Below, in pieces: positions 1,927 to 31,794 of a stretch of DNA of 36,545 nucleotides. The number at the start of each line of letters is the position of its first letter. The stretch's first letter is position 1. The translations under genes and the position numbers were made by a program. The stretch lies in IMG/VR virus record IMGVR_UViG_2585427736_000013; one strand, 5' to 3'. Source of the DNA: a virus (Duplodnaviria > Heunggongvirae > Uroviricota > Caudoviricetes). The notes under the pieces were generated by a model. The model made no database searches, was not told where the DNA came from, and saw nothing but the letters and a program-made list of their open reading frames with translations.

Positions 1927-2187
1927 TTAATTCTGAGGTAAAGGCAAGCTCATCTGATTGTTTCCCCTGTGCGAAGCTGGCAGTTCATGCCACGGGATAC
2001 CTTCTGAAGAGTGAACGCCGGAGGCGTGTTTCGATGTGAATTTATGGAAAGCTTCCAGTGTTGAGAAGCATACGCCGCATTCCAGGTTGTTACACTGGTA
2101 ATACTTTTGCCGCACGGTGTTTGAATCATTTTCCGGACGACTGGTGCGGATACGGGCAGATGCGCCACAAAGCGGACAACGGAACAT
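1927..2187 (-). CDS. ogr: late gene transcriptional activator, Ogr/Delta zinc-finger family
   Basis: 86-aa ORF MFRCPLCG...QCNNLECGVCF with the four-Cys arrangement and N-terminal sequence of P2 Ogr. Confidence 0.9.
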   Translation of the reverse strand: MFRCPLCGASARIRTSRPENDSNTVRQKYYQCNNLECGVCFSTLEAFHKFTSKHASGVHSSEGIPWHELPASHRGNNQMSLPLPQN

Positions 2188-2229
2188 AGCGACCTCCCTT
2201 AACGTGGTGCTGCCGCTATTCTAAGTTGC

Positions 2230-3330
2230 TCACTCTGTTTCTGCTATCCATTCCGGGATTTTTGCCTCAAGCTCAAGCTGCGTGGTAAAGCCGCTGTTAT
2301 CAATGGTGTGCTCGGCTTTTGCAATGATCCAGTCCTGATTATCAATCTCGCTTTTAAATCCTGTTACCGCACCATGCATTTCGGGGTAGAGTTCTGCGCG
2401 TCCACGTGCCAGTGTGATGGAGAACGCTGCGGCTCCGCGTTGTAGCTGCTGCCACTTTGCCGCTGCTGCGCGTCTTGCTGCCTGCTCGTTCTGATAAGTC
2501 TTGCGTAATACAAACACATTGCCTTCCGCGCCTTCCATATAATCACCTTCACGGCTGCTGCTTTTCTCTTTTTTCGGTTTGCGGCGTTTCACGCTGACTT
2601 TTTTCTTTTTCCCGTAATTAAGATCAAGCCAGTAAGCGCGTACCCCCGTATACGCTTCGCGGTCAGCAATGCGGAACTGATGGCGATCGCCGCTGCTGCG
2701 TGTGATGGCGAACGATGGCAACGGCTGGCCCAGTGCGTTCACGCCACCGCCTGGCATGATGAATAACAGATTACCGCTTTTTACCGTGGTGATTGCGCCC
2801 AGCATTTCCGCCATGCGCGTAAGGAAGGACATGTCGCTTTCTTCGGTCTGGTCGGCGTGGTCGATTTCGATATCCATCAGCATTTCGCTGATTTGCGGTT
2901 TCAGACCGTACCGATGAGCGATGGCAGATACCACGCGCTCAACGGTCACATCATGCCAGGACACCTCACGTTTAACGTTAAATTCATCCCGAAAATCTGC
3001 GCTTCTGGCTGAAACAGTCAGCCTGTCCGGCGGTCCTTCGTGAGCGATTTCATCAACAATGTAAGTGCCTTTTTCTGTCAGCGGTTCCCCTTTCCAGCCA
3101 ATGAGAACCGTCAGACGCGCGCCCCGTGGCGGTAGCTGCAACTGACCATCCGCATCATCCAGCGTGATGGTGAGCTGGTCCGCCTCAAATCCCCGGTTGT
3201 CGGTCAGTGACAGGCTCATCAGGCGCTCTGCCACGCCTGACAGCGCTTTACCCTCCGCAAGAATATCAAAATCCGGCATTTTCACGGGGTCTGTGCCCTG
3301 ACTGAGCAATTGCATGGTGGTGTCGGTCAT
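2230..3330 (-). CDS. D: phage tail protein D (late control gene D family)
   Basis: ORF-track frame 2230..3462; start placed at ATG (rc of 3328-3330, MTDTTMQLL) preceded by GGGAGGG; gpD-like sequence over about 366 aa. Confidence 0.88.
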   Translation of the reverse strand: MTDTTMQLLSQGTDPVKMPDFDILAEGKALSGVAERLMSLSLTDNRGFEADQLTITLDDADGQLQLPPRGARLTVLIGWKGEPLTEKGTYIVDEIAHEGPPDRLTVSARSADFRDEFNVKREVSWHDVTVERVVSAIAHRYGLKPQISEMLMDIEIDHADQTEESDMSFLTRMAEMLGAITTVKSGNLLFIMPGGGVNALGQPLPSFAITRSSGDRHQFRIADREAYTGVRAYWLDLNYGKKKKVSVKRRKPKKEKSSSREGDYMEGAEGNVFVLRKTYQNEQAARRAAAAKWQQLQRGAAAFSITLARGRAELYPEMHGAVTGFKSEIDNQDWIIAKAEHTIDNSGFTTQLELEAKIPEWIAETE

Positions 3331-3487
3331 CTGTTCCCTCCCTGTGCGGCATGGTCGCATGTGCGTGCGGAGGGGGTTACTGCTTTTTGTTGTCGCCGTG
3401 GCGGGAGAACGGCGCAGGGGGGAGATTACGCGCGTGGTGGGTGATGATTGTTGCCGAATCATTTAACGGATACAAGGGGCTGAAGCT
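3331..3487. promoter_or_regulatory. divergent intergenic region between D (minus) and FI (plus); presumed late promoters
   Basis: 157-bp non-coding gap between two divergently oriented essential tail genes; T/G-rich element followed by G-runs at 3382-3422. Confidence 0.35.
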
Positions 3488-4672
3488 ATGAGTGAAACTC
3501 GTTTTCATGGTGCCCGTGTTACGGAAAATACCGACCTGGTAACAGCGATTAACGATGTTGATTCCAGCGTTATCGGTATCGTGGCAACGGCGGATGATGC
3601 GGACGCGAAGCTGTTCCCGCTGAACAAGCCCACACTGCTGACCCGCGTCAATGACGTGCTGGGGAAATGCGGGACAACGGGGACGCTTTATCGTGCGCTT
3701 AAGGCCATCGCAGACCAGGTGAGCACAAAGGTGATCGTCGTTCGCGTGGCTGAACACAAAGAAGAAGACGGAAAGACGCAGGATCAACTGGTTATCGGTG
3801 GTTCTGAGGATGACGGCAGCTATACGGGAATGTATGCGCTGCTTGTTGCAGAGCAGGATGAAAGCATCGGATACCGTCCGCGTATTCTGGCCGCGCCGGA
3901 GCTGGACACGGAGGCGGTGACAAAATCCCTGTGCGTGATTGCGGGTAAGCTGCGCGCGTTTGTGTATGCCTCATGTCATGGCTGTAACACGATGGCAGAG
4001 GCAATTACCTACCGCCAGAAATTCAACGAACGTGAGGTGATGCTCTTATGGCCGGACTTCATCGCCTACAACCCGAAAAGTGGCAAAAACGAAACGTTCC
4101 CCGCGCCTGCTTATGCGTGCGGCCTTCGTGCGTACATTGACCATGAGCAGGGCTGGCACAAATCACTGTCCAACGTTCCGGTTAAAAATGTGCTGGGGAT
4201 GTCCCGGCATGTGTTCTGGTCGTTGCAGGCCGAAGACAGCGATGCCAACAGCCTTAACAACAAAGAAATCACGACCATTATTCGTCGCAACGGGTTCCGC
4301 TTCTGGGGCAACCGCACACCGGAAACGAACGCCTACATCTTTGAGGTGTATACCCGAACCGCACAGGTACTGGCTGATTCAATTGCGGAAGCGCAGTTTG
4401 AAACCATCGACAGTCCACTGACGCCTGCGAACGTGAAGGATGTTATCAGTGCCATCAGGGCAAAACTGGATTCACTGGTTACTGCCGGGAAACTGATTGG
4501 CGCGTCGTGCTGGTATGACGTGGTGGATAACAGCACCACGGATTTACGTCAGGGGCGTGTGCGTATTCGCTACAAATATACGCCTGTTCCTCCGCTGGAA
4601 GATATGGAGCTTTACCAGACGTTTACTGATGAATACTTTGATCCCGCATTTGCGGTGTTGGGAGGTGTCTGA
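3488..4672 (+). CDS. FI: contractile tail sheath protein
   Basis: 394 aa; strong similarity by recall to P2 FI (FPLNKP, RPRILAAPELDT, LRAFVYAS, EQGWHKSLSNV, FRFWGNRT, YTRTAQV, YTPVPPLE motifs). Confidence 0.95.
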   Translation: MSETRFHGARVTENTDLVTAINDVDSSVIGIVATADDADAKLFPLNKPTLLTRVNDVLGKCGTTGTLYRALKAIADQVSTKVIVVRVAEHKEEDGKTQDQLVIGGSEDDGSYTGMYALLVAEQDESIGYRPRILAAPELDTEAVTKSLCVIAGKLRAFVYASCHGCNTMAEAITYRQKFNEREVMLLWPDFIAYNPKSGKNETFPAPAYACGLRAYIDHEQGWHKSLSNVPVKNVLGMSRHVFWSLQAEDSDANSLNNKEITTIIRRNGFRFWGNRTPETNAYIFEVYTRTAQVLADSIAEAQFETIDSPLTPANVKDVISAIRAKLDSLVTAGKLIGASCWYDVVDNSTTDLRQGRVRIRYKYTPVPPLEDMELYQTFTDEYFDPAFAVLGGV

Positions 4673-13947: not shown

Positions 13948-14525
13948 TGCGGGCCTCCTGTCGAATCGCTGCCGCCTTTCACGCCACCGTGTTTATGCGT
14001 ATGCACGGTAATGCCGTTTGAGGTGAAGTTGCCGCCGCTGTGCGTGATATTGCCGCTCATCTTTCCTCCTTTTGTGACGTCAAGCGTCGCCGTTCTCAGA
14101 AGGTTTGTGCATTCCACGACGGGCGTATCCAGTTTCACGCTGACGGATGCCTGCAAAGTGGCCGTTTTCATGCCGCTGGCGCTCAGTGCGCCTGCGTCTG
14201 CGTCGTAGCGGAACACCGCGCCATCCGGCGCGCTGACCACGATTTCTTTCAGGCTTTTGCCGGGGGCCGGACTGGCATCACTCCACAGGCTGCCAATTAT
14301 CATGGCGGTTTCCGGGTTGCCGCCAATGCAGGCAATTACCACCTGTTCGCCTGGTGATGGCGGCAGCCACACATTGAAGGCCCCCGCGCGCGTGGTGTTC
14401 CAGCGCAACCAGCCTGTTTCCAGTTCGCCGCTGCGAACGCGCACGCGCCAGGACTTCTCATCAACTTCAGAGATGATCCCGGTGCGGATGATATTGCTCA
14501 GCAGTCGCATGAGTTCTGCGCTCAC
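13944..14525 (-). CDS. V: baseplate spike/hub protein V
   Basis: 193 aa, overlapping stop/start with W and S. Confidence 0.85.
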   Translation of the reverse strand: MSAELMRLLSNIIRTGIISEVDEKSWRVRVRSGELETGWLRWNTTRAGAFNVWLPPSPGEQVVIACIGGNPETAMIIGSLWSDASPAPGKSLKEIVVSAPDGAVFRYDADAGALSASGMKTATLQASVSVKLDTPVVECTNLLRTATLDVTKGGKMSGNITHSGGNFTSNGITVHTHKHGGVKGGSDSTGGPQ

Positions 14526-15166
14526 CGTACAGCCTCCGCAATCCGGCCCAGCACCGTGTTATAAATCAGGCGCTCATCTGCCTGGCTGATACCCAGCAGC
14601 TCACGTACCGGGTAATCGGTGAAAATGCCCGGCGCAACCTGATCGCGCTCACCGAACTGATGAACGCGGGCAATACGTGCGGCCACGCCGCTGTAACCCA
14701 CCGTCACACCGGAAGTATCTGCACGGGCTTTCAGGTAGCGGGCGGTGCGCAGTTTTACGAACATGGGGACGCGCTTTGTGCTGTCCTGGTTGATGCGCCG
14801 GGTGCGTATTTCCAGAAAGCGGTCGATGTCATCCCGGTAAAACGTGCGGATATTGTTTTTATCCTCATCCCACCCGGTAATGGTTCGCCCGTATTTCCCC
14901 GTGTCGTGATGCCAGTTTTTCAGCGTGCGTGCTTCGTTATTCCAGATAAAGCGAATGCGTTCCTGTATCCGGGTTACGCGGCGTCTGCGTGGTGTCCACG
15001 CGGTCCCGTCCGGCGCTTTCTGTGATCGGATACGCGCCTGCTGGGCGCGGCGTAAATCCTGTGCCAGCTTTCTGGCGATGTTATTGATGGCCTGCTGATT
15101 CAGGCTGTCGCGGATGGCCTCAAAGGTTTCATCCACGCGGGTGAATGTCTTATCCATCGCTTTCAC
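14522..15166 (-). CDS. S: tail completion / virion morphogenesis protein S (start uncertain)
   Basis: Frame between R and V; 214-aa longest ORF is longer than P2 S, true start may be internal. Confidence 0.65.
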   Translation of the reverse strand: MKAMDKTFTRVDETFEAIRDSLNQQAINNIARKLAQDLRRAQQARIRSQKAPDGTAWTPRRRRVTRIQERIRFIWNNEARTLKNWHHDTGKYGRTITGWDEDKNNIRTFYRDDIDRFLEIRTRRINQDSTKRVPMFVKLRTARYLKARADTSGVTVGYSGVAARIARVHQFGERDQVAPGIFTDYPVRELLGISQADERLIYNTVLGRIAEAVR

Positions 15167-25551: not shown

Positions 25552-26511
25552 TTACTCCTTGTCCATTGCGTACAGCCCATTAACCAGAGCAAACTGTGGC
25601 ACCCCGTCCGCGATGAAAGTCGCATTAACTCCGCAGGCTTCGCGGATAGCGGGTGCCACAATCTCCGCCCCGCCACCGACAACCATCACCCGCCCGTAAC
25701 CCGAAAAACCCGCCAGCGCGCGGATCACGCGTTGTTTCAGTGTTTCTTCCTTTTCACGAATAACCGCCATCAGGCTGGCGTAATGCGCGTCATTGTGGAT
25801 GTGCTGGCGCAACCAGGCTTCATCATGGCGATGTTCGATAATGGTATTGGCGATGTGGTGACTGGTACGCATACCGTTAGTGGCCATCACCGACAGTACG
25901 GCATCGGCCATCAGGGAAACGCCTACGTGTGGATCGCAAAACACCTGGCTGATACCTGCCAGTTGCCCCTGAACCTTTGCCACATCCAGTGTGGTTCCGC
26001 CTAAATCCACAATCAGCAGGGATTCAAACGGACTCATGTCAGCCAGTGCCTTAAAGCCAGCCGGAATGGATTCAGGCATAACCCGTACGTTACGGATAGT
26101 GAATGCTTCGCCGTTCTGGTACTCCACCGGGCGCATGACGTTCGCTTTTTTGCGGTTGATGTTGGCCATGTCCGGCTGTGCGTTTGTGTCGAAATATTCG
26201 CTCAGTGGCAGGGTGACAACCACATCCACTTCCTGTGGTGTGATGCCTGATTTGACCAGCGCGTGGTGAATGGCGATTACATTCACATCGCTGTACTGGT
26301 ATTGCGTGTCGGTCGTCTGGACAAAGCGATCGCTGACCGGATCAAAACCATAGCGCACGCCATCAAGCATGTAGTTCGCGGGCTGCGTGCCACCGAACGG
26401 CGCAGACCATTCCGACTTGAAGCTGTTCGGGCTGATGGCGTTGCGGCGTTCGCCGTTCTCAGTCCATGCCAGCTTGATGTTGGTGGAGCCGTCGTCGATA
26501 CAAATTTTCAT
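25552..26511 (-). CDS. parM: ParM/StbA-like actin-type segregation ATPase
   Basis: 319 aa; extended similarity to plasmid R1 ParM as recalled (IDDGSTNIKL, ISPNSF, QYSDVNV, RKKANV, VMPESIPAG, LLIVDLGGTTLD, GGGAE, LVNGLY). Confidence 0.85.
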   Translation of the reverse strand: MKICIDDGSTNIKLAWTENGERRNAISPNSFKSEWSAPFGGTQPANYMLDGVRYGFDPVSDRFVQTTDTQYQYSDVNVIAIHHALVKSGITPQEVDVVVTLPLSEYFDTNAQPDMANINRKKANVMRPVEYQNGEAFTIRNVRVMPESIPAGFKALADMSPFESLLIVDLGGTTLDVAKVQGQLAGISQVFCDPHVGVSLMADAVLSVMATNGMRTSHHIANTIIEHRHDEAWLRQHIHNDAHYASLMAVIREKEETLKQRVIRALAGFSGYGRVMVVGGGAEIVAPAIREACGVNATFIADGVPQFALVNGLYAMDKE

Positions 26512-26660
26512 GTAGCTTTTCCTTATGTTGATTAATTAATCGGTTACAGGATTTTTAAATCCCGCTTTTGCCTGTTTTGTGCGCGCTTCATATATCGCGG
26601 CGCGTTTTTTGCTCATTTACGGGATTTGTGAGTCCCGTTTCTGTCTGTTTTTTGTTTCCA
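26512..26660. promoter_or_regulatory. candidate parC-like centromere/promoter region upstream of parM
   Basis: Two units of palindrome plus CTGTTTT-containing direct repeat (26547-26581 and 26620-26654) flanking a GC hairpin with T6 (26581-26610); the second unit overlaps the 3' end of gene A. Confidence 0.35.
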
Positions 26661-29410
26661 CTGGTCAGGCTACCCCGCAGCAGGTCTGCTTTGCGGTGGG
26701 CGCGTTCAGTGGTTTCACTGATTCTCTGTGCGTGCTCTGCGTCACGGATGGCGCGCAGCATGTCAGAAAGCACGGTAACGGGGGTTTTCATGGTGTTCTG
26801 GTCCTGCTGAAGTGTGGATGCCAGACGTGCGGCGGCTTCGGGGTCTGATGCCCCCAGTTGTTCCAGATAGCTGGCGACCGGGTTATGGCGGATCTCTGTG
26901 CTGCTTACGCCGTGATTACGGCTCAGGCGCTGCCAGAACTGCGTGATTCGGCTGTCCGGGCGGGTATCCGGTTTGCGTACAATTTCAAATCCCTGCGGTG
27001 CAATGATGCTACCGTCAACGTACAGGCTGCCGCCCCGTAACAGGTGCTGCATCTGCTGTTCACCGATATGCAGGCCGAGAGATTCGGCAGATTCCCGCCA
27101 TTCTTTAGCGAGTAATTCGTGGTTATCAGGCAAAGGCCGCTGCTGTTTGCGGCTCTGTGTCCAGCTCTGCATTTCATCACTGCTGTTTTTTGCCTGTTTG
27201 TCACGAAGCGAACGCATCAGCGCCCGGCGTTCGTGCCGTTTCAGTGAGCGCATCCATTCGTTCACTTCAACGCCGTCAGGGAGCTGCGGCCACGGTGCTG
27301 GTCGTTCTTCCGGCTGTTCTGTCCCGTTGTTGTCCGTTTCCTGTACACGGGGACAGTTATTGCCACGAGTCCAAGGGGCGGCAGGGCCGCCCTGAAGGTC
27401 AAAACCATTTTCGCGGGCGCTGTCTTCCGCTTCCGGTTTGCGTCTTACCAGCTTCCAGTTATCCGGATGCGTGCATACGCGGGAAGACTCCCCGATGAGT
27501 GGTGACCAGATCCCGTAAATCTGTACGCTCTGTTCGCCGTAATCGTTCAGCTCATCGGCGAGGTCGTAGGCGGTGCGAATCAGGTAGTCTTTACGTGGAA
27601 CAAGTACGCCACCCTGTTTTTCAATGTAGGAGGCAAAACACCCGGCATCGGCGGCAGCGAGTACCGCATCCATTGCGTCATTCTTCAGCCGTTGCGGGCC
27701 TTCCGGGTTGCGTGCCATCTGGCTGGCAAGGCGGCGGAGTTCACGCCACACCTGACGGGAGGGAATGCCAAAGAACTGGAACTGGCGGACCCGGTGAAGG
27801 CGCGCCCAGCCGATGGCGCGTTCCACGCTCTCGGCCATTGATTTTCCTGTTTCGTGGTCAACGCGTGGCTTGCCCGTTTTCGGGTCGATGCCATCCACGG
27901 CGCGGCTGTCCAGGTTCTTTCCGATGTAGGTGGCGATGTAGCTGGTTGGTGTGCCTTTTGAGCCGTCGACATACTCCACCTTAAAGCGTGGGGTAATATC
28001 ATCACCCAGCTCGTGGCGGTCTTCCTGAATGGCAATATCGCGGGTGATGGCCACGATGCTGTCGATTTCTTCCGGATGAGCAAAGACCATCATGTGCCAG
28101 TGCACGGTGCCGTCATGGTGAGGCTCCACCGTGCGGATGCCATACCAGCGCAGGCCGTCGCGGTTCAGTTTTTTGCGGACCGCCGCAAAAAACGTGTTAA
28201 CCAGGTAATCGCTGGAGTCGCGCATAGTGGCCCCGTTCCATTTGGGGTTCGGATGACCGTTCTCTGTTGTGGCGTGGTATTTTGACGGGCAGGTGACAGT
28301 CAGAAACACCGCTTTGTCGCCACGGGCTTCGGCCAGAAGTTCCAGCCCCTTCATGGTGGCCATCATTTCTGCCTTACGGTGAACCGGGTTACTTACTCCC
28401 GCGTAATACACTGTCTCAAGATCAATCGTGAACCCGTCTTCGTTTTCCAGCATGAAACTTTTCAGGAAATCGCGTGTTTTCTCGCGCTGTGCGCGAAACT
28501 CGCTTAACGCGTCCTGGCTCAGATAGGGTGATGTTTTTCTGGAAACCAGACAGGCGGCGCGGAGTTGTTCTTCTCTCCACTCGCAACGTAACAGCCACAG
28601 TTTGCGTTTCCACCAGTCCGCACAGGTCAGGCGAAGGATTGCGCCCGGTAACAGTTCCGTATCCGGTGCGTTCCTCCGGTCCTTGTCTGTTGTCAGTGCG
28701 TCATAATGCGGCGGCATGGTGTGCAGATGTAACGCCATGCGTGCCAGCATCTGATATGCCTTCAGCGCCACCTCCATGGTCAGTTCACCATCGGTCGCAC
28801 CAAAGTTATCGCAGAGTGTTTCGAAGGTGCTGCTGAACATCGCCGCTGTCATAGTGGCCAGCGTCTGTATCTGGTGCTTGTTGAGCTGTGGCAGGTAAAG
28901 CAAATCGTCCAGGCGTTCACGTCCGGCAAGGGAGCGATAACCCGGAGTTAGCCAGCGACGGTCGGTGCGGTCCAGACGTTCGAATATTTTGCGCAGGGTT
29001 CCGCGCGCGTAACGTTCAGCCTGCCAGTTCTTTTTTCCTTTCTGGCGATCGGCTTCCTGTTTTTTGCGCAGGAAGGAGAGGTGGCGAATAAGCGGGTCGC
29101 GCAGATAGGACGGCAGCAGGCGCAGCGAGGCCATGGCTTCATCCACCGCGCCGCGTGCCTGTCTTCTGGCGTCTCCTGCCAGCGTGATGGTTTTGTCCTG
29201 TTTTTCCTGTGCGTCCAGGCTTTTATTAATCAGGTTGCCCAGTGGCGTGGCGGAGAACGCCGCATCAGCCTTTTCCTGGCGGCGCTCGTTCTCTGCCCGG
29301 TAGGCATCCAGCCAGGAGGAAAGCGCGGATTCAGGAGCGGGGATCCCCGTTCCTTCACGCCCCACTGCGTGGCGCGGTTGTTGCCAGTCCCTGATGTACT
29401 CTGCCGTCAT
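26588..29410 (-). CDS. A: replication initiation endonuclease, gpA-like (rolling-circle HUH family)
   Basis: 940 aa with HUH-type motif (TVHWHMMVFAH); position upstream of the cos-side accessory slot. Confidence 0.88.
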   Translation of the reverse strand: MTAEYIRDWQQPRHAVGREGTGIPAPESALSSWLDAYRAENERRQEKADAAFSATPLGNLINKSLDAQEKQDKTITLAGDARRQARGAVDEAMASLRLLPSYLRDPLIRHLSFLRKKQEADRQKGKKNWQAERYARGTLRKIFERLDRTDRRWLTPGYRSLAGRERLDDLLYLPQLNKHQIQTLATMTAAMFSSTFETLCDNFGATDGELTMEVALKAYQMLARMALHLHTMPPHYDALTTDKDRRNAPDTELLPGAILRLTCADWWKRKLWLLRCEWREEQLRAACLVSRKTSPYLSQDALSEFRAQREKTRDFLKSFMLENEDGFTIDLETVYYAGVSNPVHRKAEMMATMKGLELLAEARGDKAVFLTVTCPSKYHATTENGHPNPKWNGATMRDSSDYLVNTFFAAVRKKLNRDGLRWYGIRTVEPHHDGTVHWHMMVFAHPEEIDSIVAITRDIAIQEDRHELGDDITPRFKVEYVDGSKGTPTSYIATYIGKNLDSRAVDGIDPKTGKPRVDHETGKSMAESVERAIGWARLHRVRQFQFFGIPSRQVWRELRRLASQMARNPEGPQRLKNDAMDAVLAAADAGCFASYIEKQGGVLVPRKDYLIRTAYDLADELNDYGEQSVQIYGIWSPLIGESSRVCTHPDNWKLVRRKPEAEDSARENGFDLQGGPAAPWTRGNNCPRVQETDNNGTEQPEERPAPWPQLPDGVEVNEWMRSLKRHERRALMRSLRDKQAKNSSDEMQSWTQSRKQQRPLPDNHELLAKEWRESAESLGLHIGEQQMQHLLRGGSLYVDGSIIAPQGFEIVRKPDTRPDSRITQFWQRLSRNHGVSSTEIRHNPVASYLEQLGASDPEAAARLASTLQQDQNTMKTPVTVLSDMLRAIRDAEHAQRISETTERAHRKADLLRGSLTSGNKKQTETGLTNPVNEQKTRRDI

Positions 29411-29416
29411 AGTGAT

Positions 29417-29782
29417 TTACTTCGTCATGCCATTCAGGGTGTCGCGGCAGACTGTAGCCAGCCGCTGAATTTCCAGCACGGTGTCTTCTGTGTCGGCATG
29501 GCGATGTGTGATGCGGATGCTGTCGGCAATCACATCGACGATTGCAGAGGATGGGCGCTGGTAAATGCCAATAACGTACGGGGTGCCACCTTCAATGCGG
29601 TAAAGCCTGTAATTTCCCTCGTGGCTGTCAATCATGTAGCGACCATCAATAACAATCTTTCCGTCAGCGAGCTGCGGTACAGGCAGGGATTTCAGGTACA
29701 TGTCATAACGTTCACGCACGCGAACGGCAAGATCACGCTCTGTGTTGAGCAGGTATTCAAGAAAGTCGTTGGCGAGAATCAT
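29417..29782 (-). CDS. hypothetical phage protein (121 aa) immediately upstream of A
   Basis: Compact ORF, 6 nt from A start, same strand. Confidence 0.55.
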   Translation of the reverse strand: MILANDFLEYLLNTERDLAVRVRERYDMYLKSLPVPQLADGKIVIDGRYMIDSHEGNYRLYRIEGGTPYVIGIYQRPSSAIVDVIADSIRITHRHADTEDTVLEIQRLATVCRDTLNGMTK

Positions 29783-29854
29783 TGCGGCAATCCTCTTGTT
29801 ACAGATGTGCGAAGGCCTCCCGCCGCAAGGTGCAGGAAAGGCCCGGAACAGGAA

Positions 29855-30085
29855 TTAATGGAGTTTGTTTTGCTGCTGGATGAGCTGCTGAAGCTCGCGC
29901 AGATCATCCGCCAGATAGCTGAAAACAGCGGATGAGTAGAGGTTTGAAAGTTCGCAGCTACGCTCATGCAGCATATTGATGTGCATGATTTTAGCGACGC
30001 GGAATGCGCGGGAAAGTCTGCGGTTGATTTCAGTCTGGATGTGACGACGCTCCGCGATAGCGCGGTGCTGTTTGCGGTTTGCCAT
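29855..30085 (-). CDS. hypothetical phage protein (76 aa)
   Basis: ORF with basic helical character; weak ribosome-binding site. Confidence 0.45.
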   Translation of the reverse strand: MANRKQHRAIAERRHIQTEINRRLSRAFRVAKIMHINMLHERSCELSNLYSSAVFSYLADDLRELQQLIQQQNKLH

Positions 30086-30452
30086 GGTGTGGCCTCGTAC
30101 GTAGTAAGTTTTTGAAACTCACCAACCCGAGGTTCCAAGCTCAGGGTGGCGAGACGTACAGGGTTGGAACTACCGGCTACGCACGAACCCGGCCCGACCG
30201 AAGTCGGCCCCGTACGCCCCGCCATAATTCTGACGTGAAAAAGACGTGGCGATACAGTACGCACAAAAAAACCGCTGGCGCGGTTGTGCGCGTGCATAGT
30301 CGGCGGGGTTCCAATCCCGGCACCCGCTTTATGAGGTGCAGCGGAAATGTAACCTGACTGATTGCGGCATGGCAAGCGGTTTTTTTGTGAGAACGGCATA
30401 CTAAAAAATCCTGATACTGCTCCGGCCAGCGGTTTTCACTGGCCGGGTTTAA
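30086..30452. other. GC-rich structured non-coding stretch inside the early operon (candidate ncRNA or regulatory region)
   Basis: About 370 bp with no credible ORF; hairpin 30422-30446; minus-strand terminator-like CCGC/GCGG stem plus U7 (30265-30283); plus-strand hairpin followed by T7 (30362-30386); several other inverted repeats. Confidence 0.3.
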
Positions 30453-31283
30453 TTACTTCACCGGAACAAACGGAACAGCGGTATTGCTGGTCATGTATTG
30501 CGGTAGCGTGCCGTTCCATTTGTTGATTGCTTCCAGCTCCATAACGCCGGGATTCTGGCGCAGAGCTTCACCGCGTAAACGAATGGCGTCGGCTTCAGCC
30601 TGGGCTTTTGTGCGAATGGCATCAGCCTGTCCGGCAGCTTCTGCGCGCAACATGTTGGCTTCTGCTTCGCGTTGCTTGACTTCCTGTTCGCGTTGCAGGG
30701 TTTTCTGGTTTGCCGTGACTTTGGCGTTAATGCTGTCGATAACGGTTGGCGGATATTCCGGTTTACCGACATAAGAGAGGCTCATGACCTGAATGCCGAT
30801 GGGGGTCATCTCTTCCTGAATATCTTTAAGTGCTGAATCCAGCAGTTCAGACTTGCCACCGTCGATGAATTTATCGGTGGTCATTTTGCTGGCCAGTCGG
30901 TTGAGTGCGTCGGCGATCTTCTGGCGCAGGTCAGTGTCGGTAATGTCGTCCACGCCTTTGCGGTAGGTCTGAAACACTGTGGTAACTTTGGATGGATCGA
31001 CCTTGTAGGCCACGCCGATGTGATAGCCGATGGTTGTGCCGTCACTCATCTGGAAGCTGAACGGGTCATCGTAGGTCTTCATTTGTTTGAAGGTCGGGAA
31101 GATGTAAACCTCGGTATTCCAGCCAGTCCAGTAGCGGCCAACGCCAACCACTTCGCCAACGCCTTTGTCGTCGCCCAGCTTATTGACTTTGATGCCCACA
31201 TTACCTGGCTCAACGCGATCGCAGCCAACCAGCAGGATGGCGGCAAAAAGCGGGAGAATCTGAAAGAGTTTGAATTTCTTCAT
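30453..31283 (-). CDS. SPFH/band-7 (stomatin-prohibitin-HflK/C-like) lipoprotein
   Basis: 276 aa; signal peptide with lipobox LLVGC; SPFH-like core followed by Ala/Glu/Arg-rich coiled-coil tail. Confidence 0.75.
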   Translation of the reverse strand: MKKFKLFQILPLFAAILLVGCDRVEPGNVGIKVNKLGDDKGVGEVVGVGRYWTGWNTEVYIFPTFKQMKTYDDPFSFQMSDGTTIGYHIGVAYKVDPSKVTTVFQTYRKGVDDITDTDLRQKIADALNRLASKMTTDKFIDGGKSELLDSALKDIQEEMTPIGIQVMSLSYVGKPEYPPTVIDSINAKVTANQKTLQREQEVKQREAEANMLRAEAAGQADAIRTKAQAEADAIRLRGEALRQNPGVMELEAINKWNGTLPQYMTSNTAVPFVPVK

Positions 31284-31483
31284 TGTTTGATTTCCTTGAT
31301 GTACTTACTGAAAAGGCGAACAACGCCTGCCGGGTACAGCATGGCAATGAAAATGCCCAGCAATACCAGGAAGGAGCTGTCTGATGAAATCATTCGGGGG
31401 AGTAGTCCTGCATACAGAATGAGAGAGACGAGGACGCATACCAGCGCCCACATGTATGCGCGAAACCAGGTCTTGTTGTTCAT
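31280..31483 (-). CDS. small two-TM membrane protein translationally coupled to the SPFH gene
   Basis: 67 aa with two hydrophobic helices; stop overlaps SPFH start (ATGA). Confidence 0.6.
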   Translation of the reverse strand: MNNKTWFRAYMWALVCVLVSLILYAGLLPRMISSDSSFLVLLGIFIAMLYPAGVVRLFSKYIKEIKQ

Positions 31484-31494
31484 ATCGCGGTCCT

Positions 31495-31794
31495 TTACTG
31501 GTTAAGGAAAAAATCAAAAACCTTGTCGATGCGTTGCAGCAACTCTTGTTGCATTGCTTCCGGCGTTTCTGGTTCGCCTGGTGACTCCAGCGGTGCGCAG
31601 AAATCAGCGATTTCATGATGGAGCGTCAGGCGAATGGCAGGAGCCATGGTTCTGGCGTGCTCCAGCTCATCCAGCAGTGCCAGCACGGCAGATGGTGAGA
31701 GCATTGCGCGAAACGCCAGTAATTTTTGATGCGTTGCCATTCGTTGCAGGTCAGTCGCCAGTTCGCGTAGCTTCTGGTGGTTGATGGTGCTCAT
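31495..31794 (-). CDS. hypothetical protein (99 aa)
   Basis: ORF in tightly packed early operon; no recognisable motif. Confidence 0.5.
   Translation of the reverse strand: MSTINHQKLRELATDLQRMATHQKLLAFRAMLSPSAVLALLDELEHARTMAPAIRLTLHHEIADFCAPLESPGEPETPEAMQQELLQRIDKVFDFFLNQ

Follow-up and report, generated by a model that had tools for sequence, protein, structure and literature searches.

Introduction

Structural studies have led to a view of SPFH proteins as membrane cages, few of which have a known client. The present study concerns a phage-borne member of this family, namely an SPFH lipoprotein gene with the gene of a small membrane protein directly upstream of it, found in a 36,545-nucleotide (nt) stretch of viral DNA (Caudoviricetes; IMG/VR record IMGVR_UViG_2585427736_000013) that is referred to as the window throughout. 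The closest described genes are gp11 and gp12 of phage P88 (PHROG 1130 and PHROG 200), which are essentially those of the window and differ from them in nothing material. What is new here is that the small protein, a putative membrane hairpin, and the SPFH lipoprotein are shown by sequence comparison to form a conserved, mobile two-gene unit, probably expressed early, across many phage groups. The gene anatomy, family, insertion boundaries, pairing, distribution, purifying selection and protomer fold of this unit were computed in this work.

Among the described cellular systems, the HflK/HflC–FtsH complex (PDB 7vhp, 7wi3, 9cz2) resembles the phage protein in having an SPFH domain, a long helix, a C-terminal element and an N-terminal membrane anchor, and the SPFH domain of the phage protein is likewise predicted to be periplasmic. 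The SPFH domain of HflK/C faces this same side of the membrane, while those of QmcA and the flotillins face the opposite one. However, HflK/C comprises two paralogues with a transmembrane (TM) anchor, whereas the phage has one gene with a predicted lipid anchor, and sequence identity is as low as ~16–18%. The NfeD–SPFH operons, represented by YbbJ–QmcA of E. coli (PDB 8z5g), share with the phage pair an upstream small membrane-protein gene coupled to the SPFH gene, and the QmcA protomer is a structural match of the phage SPFH model. Unlike YbbJ, the phage partner has neither an NfeD OB-fold nor any YbbJ similarity, and the phage SPFH protein is a predicted secreted lipoprotein. A phage precedent is offered by MbpS/MbpV of Kayvirus (Staphylococcus phage K group), wherein an SPFH gene lies beside a small membrane-protein gene (PMC7150955). 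MbpS is a detectable homologue of the SPFH protein of the window (25% identity, E 1e-8), but the Kayvirus genes belong to a lysis-gene cluster, the host is Gram-positive and the partner has a single TM span.

Functional analogies can be drawn with lambda CIII, T4 Imm and Sp, and Ltp of TP-J34, all early products that exert their effect at the inner membrane or by way of it. CIII is an inhibitor of FtsH, while Imm, Sp and the lipoprotein Ltp block secondary infection. Pfam and PADLOC scans detected no relationship of the pair, in sequence or fold, to CIII, Imm, Sp or Ltp. For phage SPFH proteins, previous authors have speculated on roles connected with FtsH and CII (PMC10269572, PMC4936722), Sec export (PMC7150955), and adsorption or entry (PMC13239085). 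A survey of the SPFH proteins of Pseudomonas aeruginosa leaves phages unmentioned (PMC13086221).

A conserved two-gene unit

The two genes of the window are located as follows.

31280..31483, minus strand: small membrane-protein gene, 67 amino acids (PHROG 1130 'membrane protein', E 1.3e-22)
30453..31283, minus strand: SPFH/Band_7 lipoprotein gene, 276 amino acids (PHROG 200 'lipoprotein', E 1.5e-112)

A hairpin profile was built from seven proteins and searched against all open reading frames (ORFs) of 270 viral loci containing a full SPFH gene. These loci represent 141 distinct module variants, 135 of which have a co-oriented ORF of the hairpin family beside the SPFH gene, with profile E-values ranging from 1e-30 to 1e-4 with one exception. 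The presence of the partner in 135 of 141 variants indicates a real two-gene unit. The phage SPFH gene is hence not a lone gene but part of a conserved unit with a dedicated, often unannotated hairpin partner. No conserved third gene was found downstream, each downstream ORF cluster being confined to one SPFH subtype.

Selection acts very differently along the pair. Across 18 P88-type alleles, the ratio of nonsynonymous to synonymous polymorphism (pN/pS) falls to 0.021 in the mature SPFH protein, compared with 0.44 in the signal peptide and 0.36 in the small gene. The last value indicates that the reading frame of the small ORF is conserved. The mature SPFH protein is under very strong purifying selection and displays no sign of arms-race diversification.

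In Stx2 phages, phiP27, a P1 variant and Pokken, an unannotated two-TM ORF of 62–78 amino acids overlaps or abuts the SPFH start. These hairpin genes are positioned as follows.

Stx2_EH2201 (locus L002), 3467..3655, minus strand: unannotated hairpin gene
phiP27 (locus L004), equivalent position: unannotated hairpin gene
P1 variant MH422554 (locus L003), 3809..4045, minus strand: unannotated hairpin gene
Stenotrophomonas phage Pokken (locus L092), ~2280..2500, plus strand: unannotated hairpin gene

The partner family has been systematically missed by annotators, and the names that its members do carry are solely 'hypothetical' or 'membrane protein'. Variants of the small gene beside an intact SPFH gene were seen on two viral contigs (L015 and L220); one has an N-terminal half disrupted by an apparent frameshift, leaving only the second TM span in frame, and the other a shortened C-terminus. 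In phage Pa222 (Bruynoghevirus; L093, ~1990..2200, plus strand), the gene directly upstream of the SPFH gene encodes a different, single-TM protein, and a weak hairpin-family candidate (VVPQMLSPANT motif, E 0.42) is found ~460 nt upstream.

An accessory cassette in the early operon of a P88-like phage

The window is a P88-like phage of the P2 family (Peduoviridae, Xuanwuvirus). Its module region shares ~95% identity with phage P88. The P88 counterparts of the pair occupy the same position in the same order, with amino acid identities of 97.0% for the small protein (gp11) and 99.6% for the SPFH protein (gp12). They are labelled 'membrane protein' and 'lipoprotein', respectively, in NC_026014, and the label 'putative SPFH domain protein' is used in KP063541. 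The pair of the window is therefore a set of accessory genes of a P88-like prophage that is already annotated in databases.

The boundaries of the insert were obtained from blastn comparison with sister phages that do not contain it.

30390..31494, minus strand: accessory cassette of 1,105 bp (small gene, SPFH gene and 3' hairpin)
30422..30446, minus strand: GC-rich hairpin of 8 bp, 6 nt past the SPFH stop, with a T-run 13 nt further

The sister phages PhiR44_2 and Entero_P88(23) match the window up to 30389 and resume at 31491/31495, with ~18 bp in between in both. As these alignments flank 30390..31494, the pair represents a clean 1,105-bp cargo insertion. Further, Shae_phiSM carries a different, 552-nt gene in the cassette slot, which is a variable site of the early operon. 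The claim of a preliminary description of this DNA that the pair is no part of the canonical P2 early region is thus borne out by the two sister phages without the insert; it is an accessory element within the early operon.

Translational coupling, which had also been proposed, agrees with the geometry of the genes. The stop codon of the small ORF and the SPFH start codon overlap by 4 nt (tcat at 31280–31283 of the window, ATGA on the minus strand), and AAGGA is found 9 nt upstream of the SPFH ATG and AGGA 7 nt upstream of the ATG of the small ORF. The gap from the stop of the upstream Ead/Ea22-like gene to the start of the small ORF measures 11 nt, which leaves no room for a promoter of the module's own. 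Promoter-like sites in the region are not enriched (9 vs 7.2 ± 2.5 in shuffled sequence). Given this gap and the shuffle-level count, no credible promoter could be assigned to the module. An intrinsic terminator after the SPFH gene was also considered and rejected, as the T-run stands 13 nt off the hairpin and the terminator scan calls none on the minus strand.

The SPFH lipoprotein

The features of the 276-residue protein are listed below from the N-terminus to the C-terminus.

31221..31283, minus strand: signal peptide and lipobox, residues 1–21 (...LLVGC), with Asp at +2
30657..31217, minus strand: Band_7 (PF01145) domain, residues 23–209 (Pfam E 7.5e-31)
30555..30749, minus strand: single 65-residue helix, residues 179–243, rich in Ala, Glu and Gln (AlphaFold2 secondary structure)
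30456..30521, minus strand: conserved C-terminal tail, residues 255–276 (KWNGTLPQYM...PF; alignment)

The Pfam match scores 108 bits against a cut-off of 23.6 and covers positions 2–176 of the 176 of the model. The N-terminus, MKKFKLFQILPLFAAILLVGC followed by DRVEP, shows a positive n-region, a hydrophobic h-region and the lipobox L-V-G-C, with Cys21 succeeded by Asp22, and satisfies the pattern [LVI][ASTVI][GAS]C. The signal-peptide Cys is present in all close relatives, and the strict lipobox pattern in 123 of 134 unique sequences. Among these relatives, Asp (49) and Ser (47) are the commonest residues at +2, ahead of Glu (16), Tyr (8) and Gly (3), the remaining 11 being those missed by the strict pattern. 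In E. coli, Asp at +2 leads to inner-membrane retention by avoidance of the Lol pathway. The SPFH protein is thus predicted from its lipobox to be lipidated, and by this rule it would be kept at the inner membrane, although the other +2 residues of its relatives make retention uncertain.

In distant SPFH relatives, an N-terminal TM anchor replaces the lipobox, and of the three such anchors examined, two are preceded by positive charges. The Cys-ending signal peptide of the close relatives, together with the N-in TM anchors of two of the three distant ones, places the SPFH domain outside the cytoplasm in this family. The records of Stx2 phages and phiP27 label the protein 'serine protease'; Band_7 alone was found in it and no protease domain, and the label is judged to be a carry-over from the stomatin and NfeD literature.

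A single-chain AlphaFold2 model was computed from a 37-sequence alignment (mean predicted local distance difference test (pLDDT) score 79). It comprises a signal helix, an alpha/beta SPFH domain (residues 21–176, pLDDT mostly 76–93), the long helix and a short helix at residues 245–254. In this model, the long helix (residues 179–243) appears to be the equivalent of the 'wall' helix of SPFH cages. Residues 260–276 of the C-terminal tail are disordered in the monomer (pLDDT <50), and W256, G258, P261 and P271 are invariant across SPFH sequences 39–92% identical to that of the window. The tail is a candidate cap or oligomerisation element and would agree with a cage, though it does not prove one. 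Foldseek matched the model over whole-length protomers to prohibitin, HflK/C, erlin, stomatin, flotillin and QmcA–YbbJ (E 2e-14 to 2e-8; probability 1.00, ~16% identity), followed by the vault protein at ~1e-7, and no single SPFH cage protomer was preferred. The predicted protomer therefore resembles cage-forming SPFH protomers.

At the level of sequence, the best PDB match is HflK (7vhq, E 1e-4, residues 115–241). The sole NCBIfam matches are TIGR01932 (HflC), with 25.7 bits against a cut-off of 134.4, and TIGR01933 (HflK), with 23.6 against 159.4. A profile search of all ORFs of the window recovered one SPFH gene (E 5.5e-141, next best 3.2) and no second one.

The hairpin partner

Two hydrophobic spans were located in the 67-residue protein by a Kyte–Doolittle scan (~residues 6–33 and 31–58), and positive residues at both ends imply a hairpin with the N- and C-termini in the cytoplasm. 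The turn between the spans carries a conserved motif.

31376..31399, minus strand: turn motif, codons 29–36 (PRMISSDS), between the first and second TM spans, predicted periplasmic

The family consensus of this turn, which follows the first TM span, is P-x-[LM]-[IV]-S-[SA]-x-[DS]. In an alignment of 18 members that are just 13–46% identical to the protein of the window, P29, S33 and G43 are invariant. By the positive-inside rule, the turn motif is predicted to face the periplasm.

The protein itself has no Pfam match at E <= 0.01, and no NfeD match was found when the 18 members were compared with Pfam at E <= 1. One member gave a weak match to Holin_SPP1, which at E 0.17 is not significant. 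The family profile recovered no relative from the PDB, YbbJ included.

Collectively, the preliminary description was right in its parts: an SPFH-domain protein of 276 residues (Band_7 E 7.5e-31), a lipobox readable from the sequence as LLVGC followed by D, and an upstream 67-residue protein with two TM spans. Its comparison of the pair with host systems fared less well. A likeness to NfeD–SPFH pairs is contradicted by a partner that has no NfeD or OB domain, no Pfam match and no similarity to YbbJ or other PDB chains, and a likeness to the HflK/C pair by the single SPFH gene of the window and by scores far below the HflC and HflK cut-offs. Judged by these comparisons, the phage protein is a genuine member of the SPFH-scaffold family, with an unusual lipid anchor (predicted) and a dedicated partner other than NfeD.

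Distribution and mobility

Searches with tblastn found ~800 phage records with an SPFH homologue, mostly from virulent groups. Gram-positive carriers include the Staphylococcus (271) and Enterococcus Herelleviridae. Other carriers are Erwinia, Klebsiella and Escherichia phages of 70–77 kb, which we take to be N4-like, Pokken (Schitoviridae), Vequintavirinae, Bruynoghevirus, Caulobacter phiCbK-type and jumbo phages, and Halorubrum viruses. Further, 711 of 5,426 complete E. coli genomes (~13%), including UTI89 and strains of Shiga toxin-producing E. coli (STEC), have a related SPFH gene. The whole P88-type insert is present in 145, and plasmids account for roughly half of all the places found.

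At the nucleotide level, identity of the mature SPFH coding part is 87–93% in Stx2 phages and phiP27, in both of which it lies beside xis and int, and in P1-like phage-plasmids. At the protein level, the mature part is 91–93% identical in the Stx2/phiP27 and P1-like carriers and 62–82% identical in large virulent phages, the copy of Erwinia phage Pastis being 82% identical to the protein of the window. Nucleotide similarity to the Stx2, phiP27 and P1-variant copies stops at 31226–31232, which is the junction of signal peptide and mature protein, and the signal peptide and small gene share 20–48% amino acid identity between module types. The position of this break indicates two units of exchange, namely the signal peptide with the small gene and the mature SPFH part. 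The module as a whole travels among P2-like, lambdoid and P1-like phages and large virulent ones.

The setting of the pair is similar in unrelated carriers. In Stx2 phages, phiP27 and Pseudomonas phage PAN70, the pair belongs to the repressor-side (pL-type) early operon. In P1 variants, it replaces tciA-tciB-tciC in the C1-controlled ban operon and has the orientation of ban. Similarly, the SPFH gene of Tribble (a 77-kb Klebsiella phage), KNP2 (Vequintavirinae), Pokken and Pa222 lies in early-type regions, with small early-type ORFs, nucleotide-metabolism genes, HNH genes and tRNAs as neighbours. Every Gram-negative context examined, the P88 Pe operon included, is thus an early operon or an early-type region.

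With regard to P1, the pair of the variant lies at 2983..4070 of locus L003 (MH422554), in the place of tciABC at 14209..14924 of locus L008 (P1 NC_005856). The tciA-tciB-tciC genes are TerB-like and are annotated in the P1 record with 'tellurite or colicin resistance or inhibition of cell division'. The P1 genes plp and upl, in which a lipoprotein gene likewise has a small gene upstream, belong to this region of P1 as well. They were considered as relatives and rejected, since one BLASTP comparison returned E 16 and the other yielded no alignment.

Proposed role and alternatives

The general model that we favour, to which we give roughly even chances, is a periplasm-facing SPFH cage that forms on the inner membrane early in the lytic cycle around the hairpin partner. 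Upon infection or induction, an early (Pe/Cox-side) transcript would yield the 67-residue hairpin and then, by re-initiation at ATGA, the SPFH pre-lipoprotein. The hairpin would enter the inner membrane with both ends in the cytoplasm and its P-x-L-I-S-S-x-D turn in the periplasm. The SPFH protein would be exported, lipidated at Cys21 and, by virtue of Asp at +2, held on the periplasmic face of the inner membrane. By analogy with every solved SPFH protein, rings might then assemble via the long helix and the C-terminal tail into a dome or cage, which would fence a patch of inner membrane containing the hairpin partner. Most probably, the fenced patch would sequester or insulate a conserved component of the host inner membrane during lytic development. 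The sole precedent for a periplasm-facing SPFH cage of which we are aware is FtsH.

A role in lytic development is suggested by three facts, namely the location in early regions of temperate as well as virulent phages, the near-invariance of the mature protein among carriers that differ in virion and lifestyle, and the lack of diversifying selection. The same facts point to a constraint imposed by a conserved host component or by self-assembly. In addition, the abundance of the module in virulent phages and its location in repressor-controlled early operons argue against a lysogeny-specific role or a defence role expressed from the prophage.

Several observations weigh against this general model. 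The hairpin downstream of the SPFH gene lacks the form of a canonical terminator, and early timing is read from position only. Inner-membrane retention is read from Asp at +2 alone, where relatives have S, E, Y or G, and outer-membrane vesicles of Pasteurella multocida were found to contain an SPFH lipoprotein of prophage origin (PMC9872710). The SPFH gene of staphylococcal Kayvirus lies in a lysis-gene cluster, not in an early region (PMC7150955). Lastly, the searched literature holds no tested function for phage SPFH proteins, only speculation and one Pasteurella virulence study, and in a recent account the reason why a phage genome has an SPFH lipoprotein 'remains unclear' (PMC13239085, 2026).

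Within the general model, a bolder proposition can be formulated, which we advance tentatively and consider unlikely as it stands: the pair may be a widespread, phage-built membrane compartment, a periplasm-facing nanocage that temperate and virulent phages both put together early in infection and that captures or insulates a conserved host inner-membrane machine, for example FtsH or a component of DNA entry or envelope stress. If true, this would be a new general class of phage device for host takeover or exclusion, and the family of 60–85-residue hairpins would be its dedicated, previously unrecognised adaptor. With two genes in 1.1 kb, the module is a tractable and cheap experimental target. 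It would become highly interesting only once a particular client or phenotype had been demonstrated.

One alternative, for which we see a modest chance, is superinfection exclusion, which the preliminary description had raised along with abortive infection, or envelope protection, wherein the cage and hairpin would act early to block DNA entry or envelope damage by other phages or colicins. Known exclusion genes have early timing, and the module lies in early operons of temperate carriers and early-type regions of virulent ones. Its predicted envelope location, its exchange as mobile cargo among unrelated phages and the replacement of tciABC, with their annotated link to tellurite or colicin resistance or inhibition of cell division, by the P1-variant pair would fit such a role. 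However, the SPFH protein has no match in PADLOC-DB v2 at E <= 0.1, and the small protein has one marginal match (PDC-M18B, E 0.008, over 20 TM residues), which was treated as hydrophobic noise. As no PADLOC model matched, a defence-system assignment was dropped. Pfam likewise shows no similarity to Imm or other exclusion families, and the searched literature reports no phenotype. Moreover, the SPFH protein, which is at least 91% identical from carrier to carrier and has a pN/pS of 0.02, lacks the diversification usual for genes of phage–phage conflict.

Modulation of FtsH, another proposal of the preliminary description, has a similarly modest chance. On this account, the phage cage would mimic or compete with HflK/C and trap or inhibit FtsH, and would thereby stabilise phage regulators, sigma-32 or LpxC and alter the lysis–lysogeny decision or host physiology. 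The predicted orientation of the phage SPFH domain is that of HflK/C, which to our knowledge is alone among E. coli SPFH proteins in facing the periplasm. HflK is the best PDB sequence match, and the NCBIfam matches are exclusively to HflC and HflK, but these scores fall far under the respective cut-offs, identity to HflK/C is ~16–18%, and prohibitin, erlin and stomatin are equally good structural matches. A conserved host target would be in keeping with the strong purifying selection. The module of lambdoid carriers belongs to the pL-side operon, and lambda keeps its FtsH inhibitor gene cIII in its own pL-side operon. A C repressor and Cox were found in the early region of the phage of the window; no CII-family match was obtained among the six other early-operon proteins scanned, which speaks against this proposal. 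Further, the module is common in virulent phages, Gram-positive phages and haloarchaeal viruses, which have no lysogeny switch or HflKC-type arrangement.

A third possibility, which we regard as improbable, is that the scaffold helps lysis timing or secretion by organising holins, antiholins or Sec export, with the hairpin as a holin-like client. In Kayvirus, mbpS lies between lysK and tgl, beside the holin-like mbpV, and its product was proposed to assist the export of Tgl through the Sec pathway (PMC7150955). However, the module lies far from lysis genes in the window as well as in every Gram-negative context examined; the P2-type lysis cassette does not adjoin it, and its flanking genes are early regulators and replication genes. 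The Holin_SPP1 match of one member of the small family (E 0.17) would favour this reading but is not significant.

Lysogenic conversion or virulence, wherein a lysogen would display or release the lipoprotein to act on an animal host or on bacterial fitness, is very improbable: PM0222 of Pasteurella multocida, described as an SPFH lipoprotein of a prophage, is reported to leave the cell in outer-membrane vesicles, to signal via TLR1/2 and to promote virulence in mice (PMC9872710), and related SPFH genes occur in the 711 E. coli genomes noted above, but the module has no evident promoter of its own, lies within a repressor-controlled early operon and is also carried by strictly virulent phages, which cannot convert a host.

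Neighbouring features of the early operon

The early minus-strand order starts with a Cox-like regulator that faces the C repressor (helix-turn-helix), followed by DUF4761, DUF4754 and small ORFs, as assigned by Pfam. A MarR-type winged-helix protein, an Ead/Ea22-like protein, the hairpin-protein gene and the SPFH gene come next. The order ends with the hairpin structure, an isrK-like small RNA (sRNA), a C4 antisense RNA, a 'derepression' protein, gpA and ParM. The neighbours of the module are as follows.

31495..31794, minus strand: Ead/Ea22-like gene, upstream neighbour of the small ORF, ending in TAA
30265..30339, minus strand: isrK-like Hfq-binding sRNA (65.5 bits)
30142..30229, minus strand: C4 antisense RNA (82.6 bits)
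29855..30085, minus strand: 'derepression protein' gene, just downstream of the isrK-like/C4 RNA tandem

A tRNA or attachment site beside the module was considered and rejected, as ARAGORN found none and the structured region there consists of the isrK-like sRNA and the C4 antisense RNA. The tandem of these two RNAs recalls the c4-ant layout of the immI region of P1/P7, here within a P2-family phage. A promoter-like site (30375..30346) is found at the very edge of the SPFH insert. Two ORFs, 29779..30399 (minus strand, 206 amino acids) and 30079..30357 (plus strand, 92 amino acids), span both sRNA genes and probably do not represent real genes; in PhiR44_2 and P88 (SF19_gp13), the corresponding stretch is annotated as coding for a 'hypothetical protein'.

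Further downstream, the gpA replication endonuclease (26588..29410, minus strand, 940 amino acids) has its Phage_GPA domain at residues 179–503 only, with long extensions at both ends. Directly downstream of gpA lies a gene for a ParM-type, actin-like plasmid segregation protein (25552..26511, minus strand; StbA_N E 1.8e-82, with a ParM C-terminal domain), in what is an integrase-bearing phage of the P2 family.

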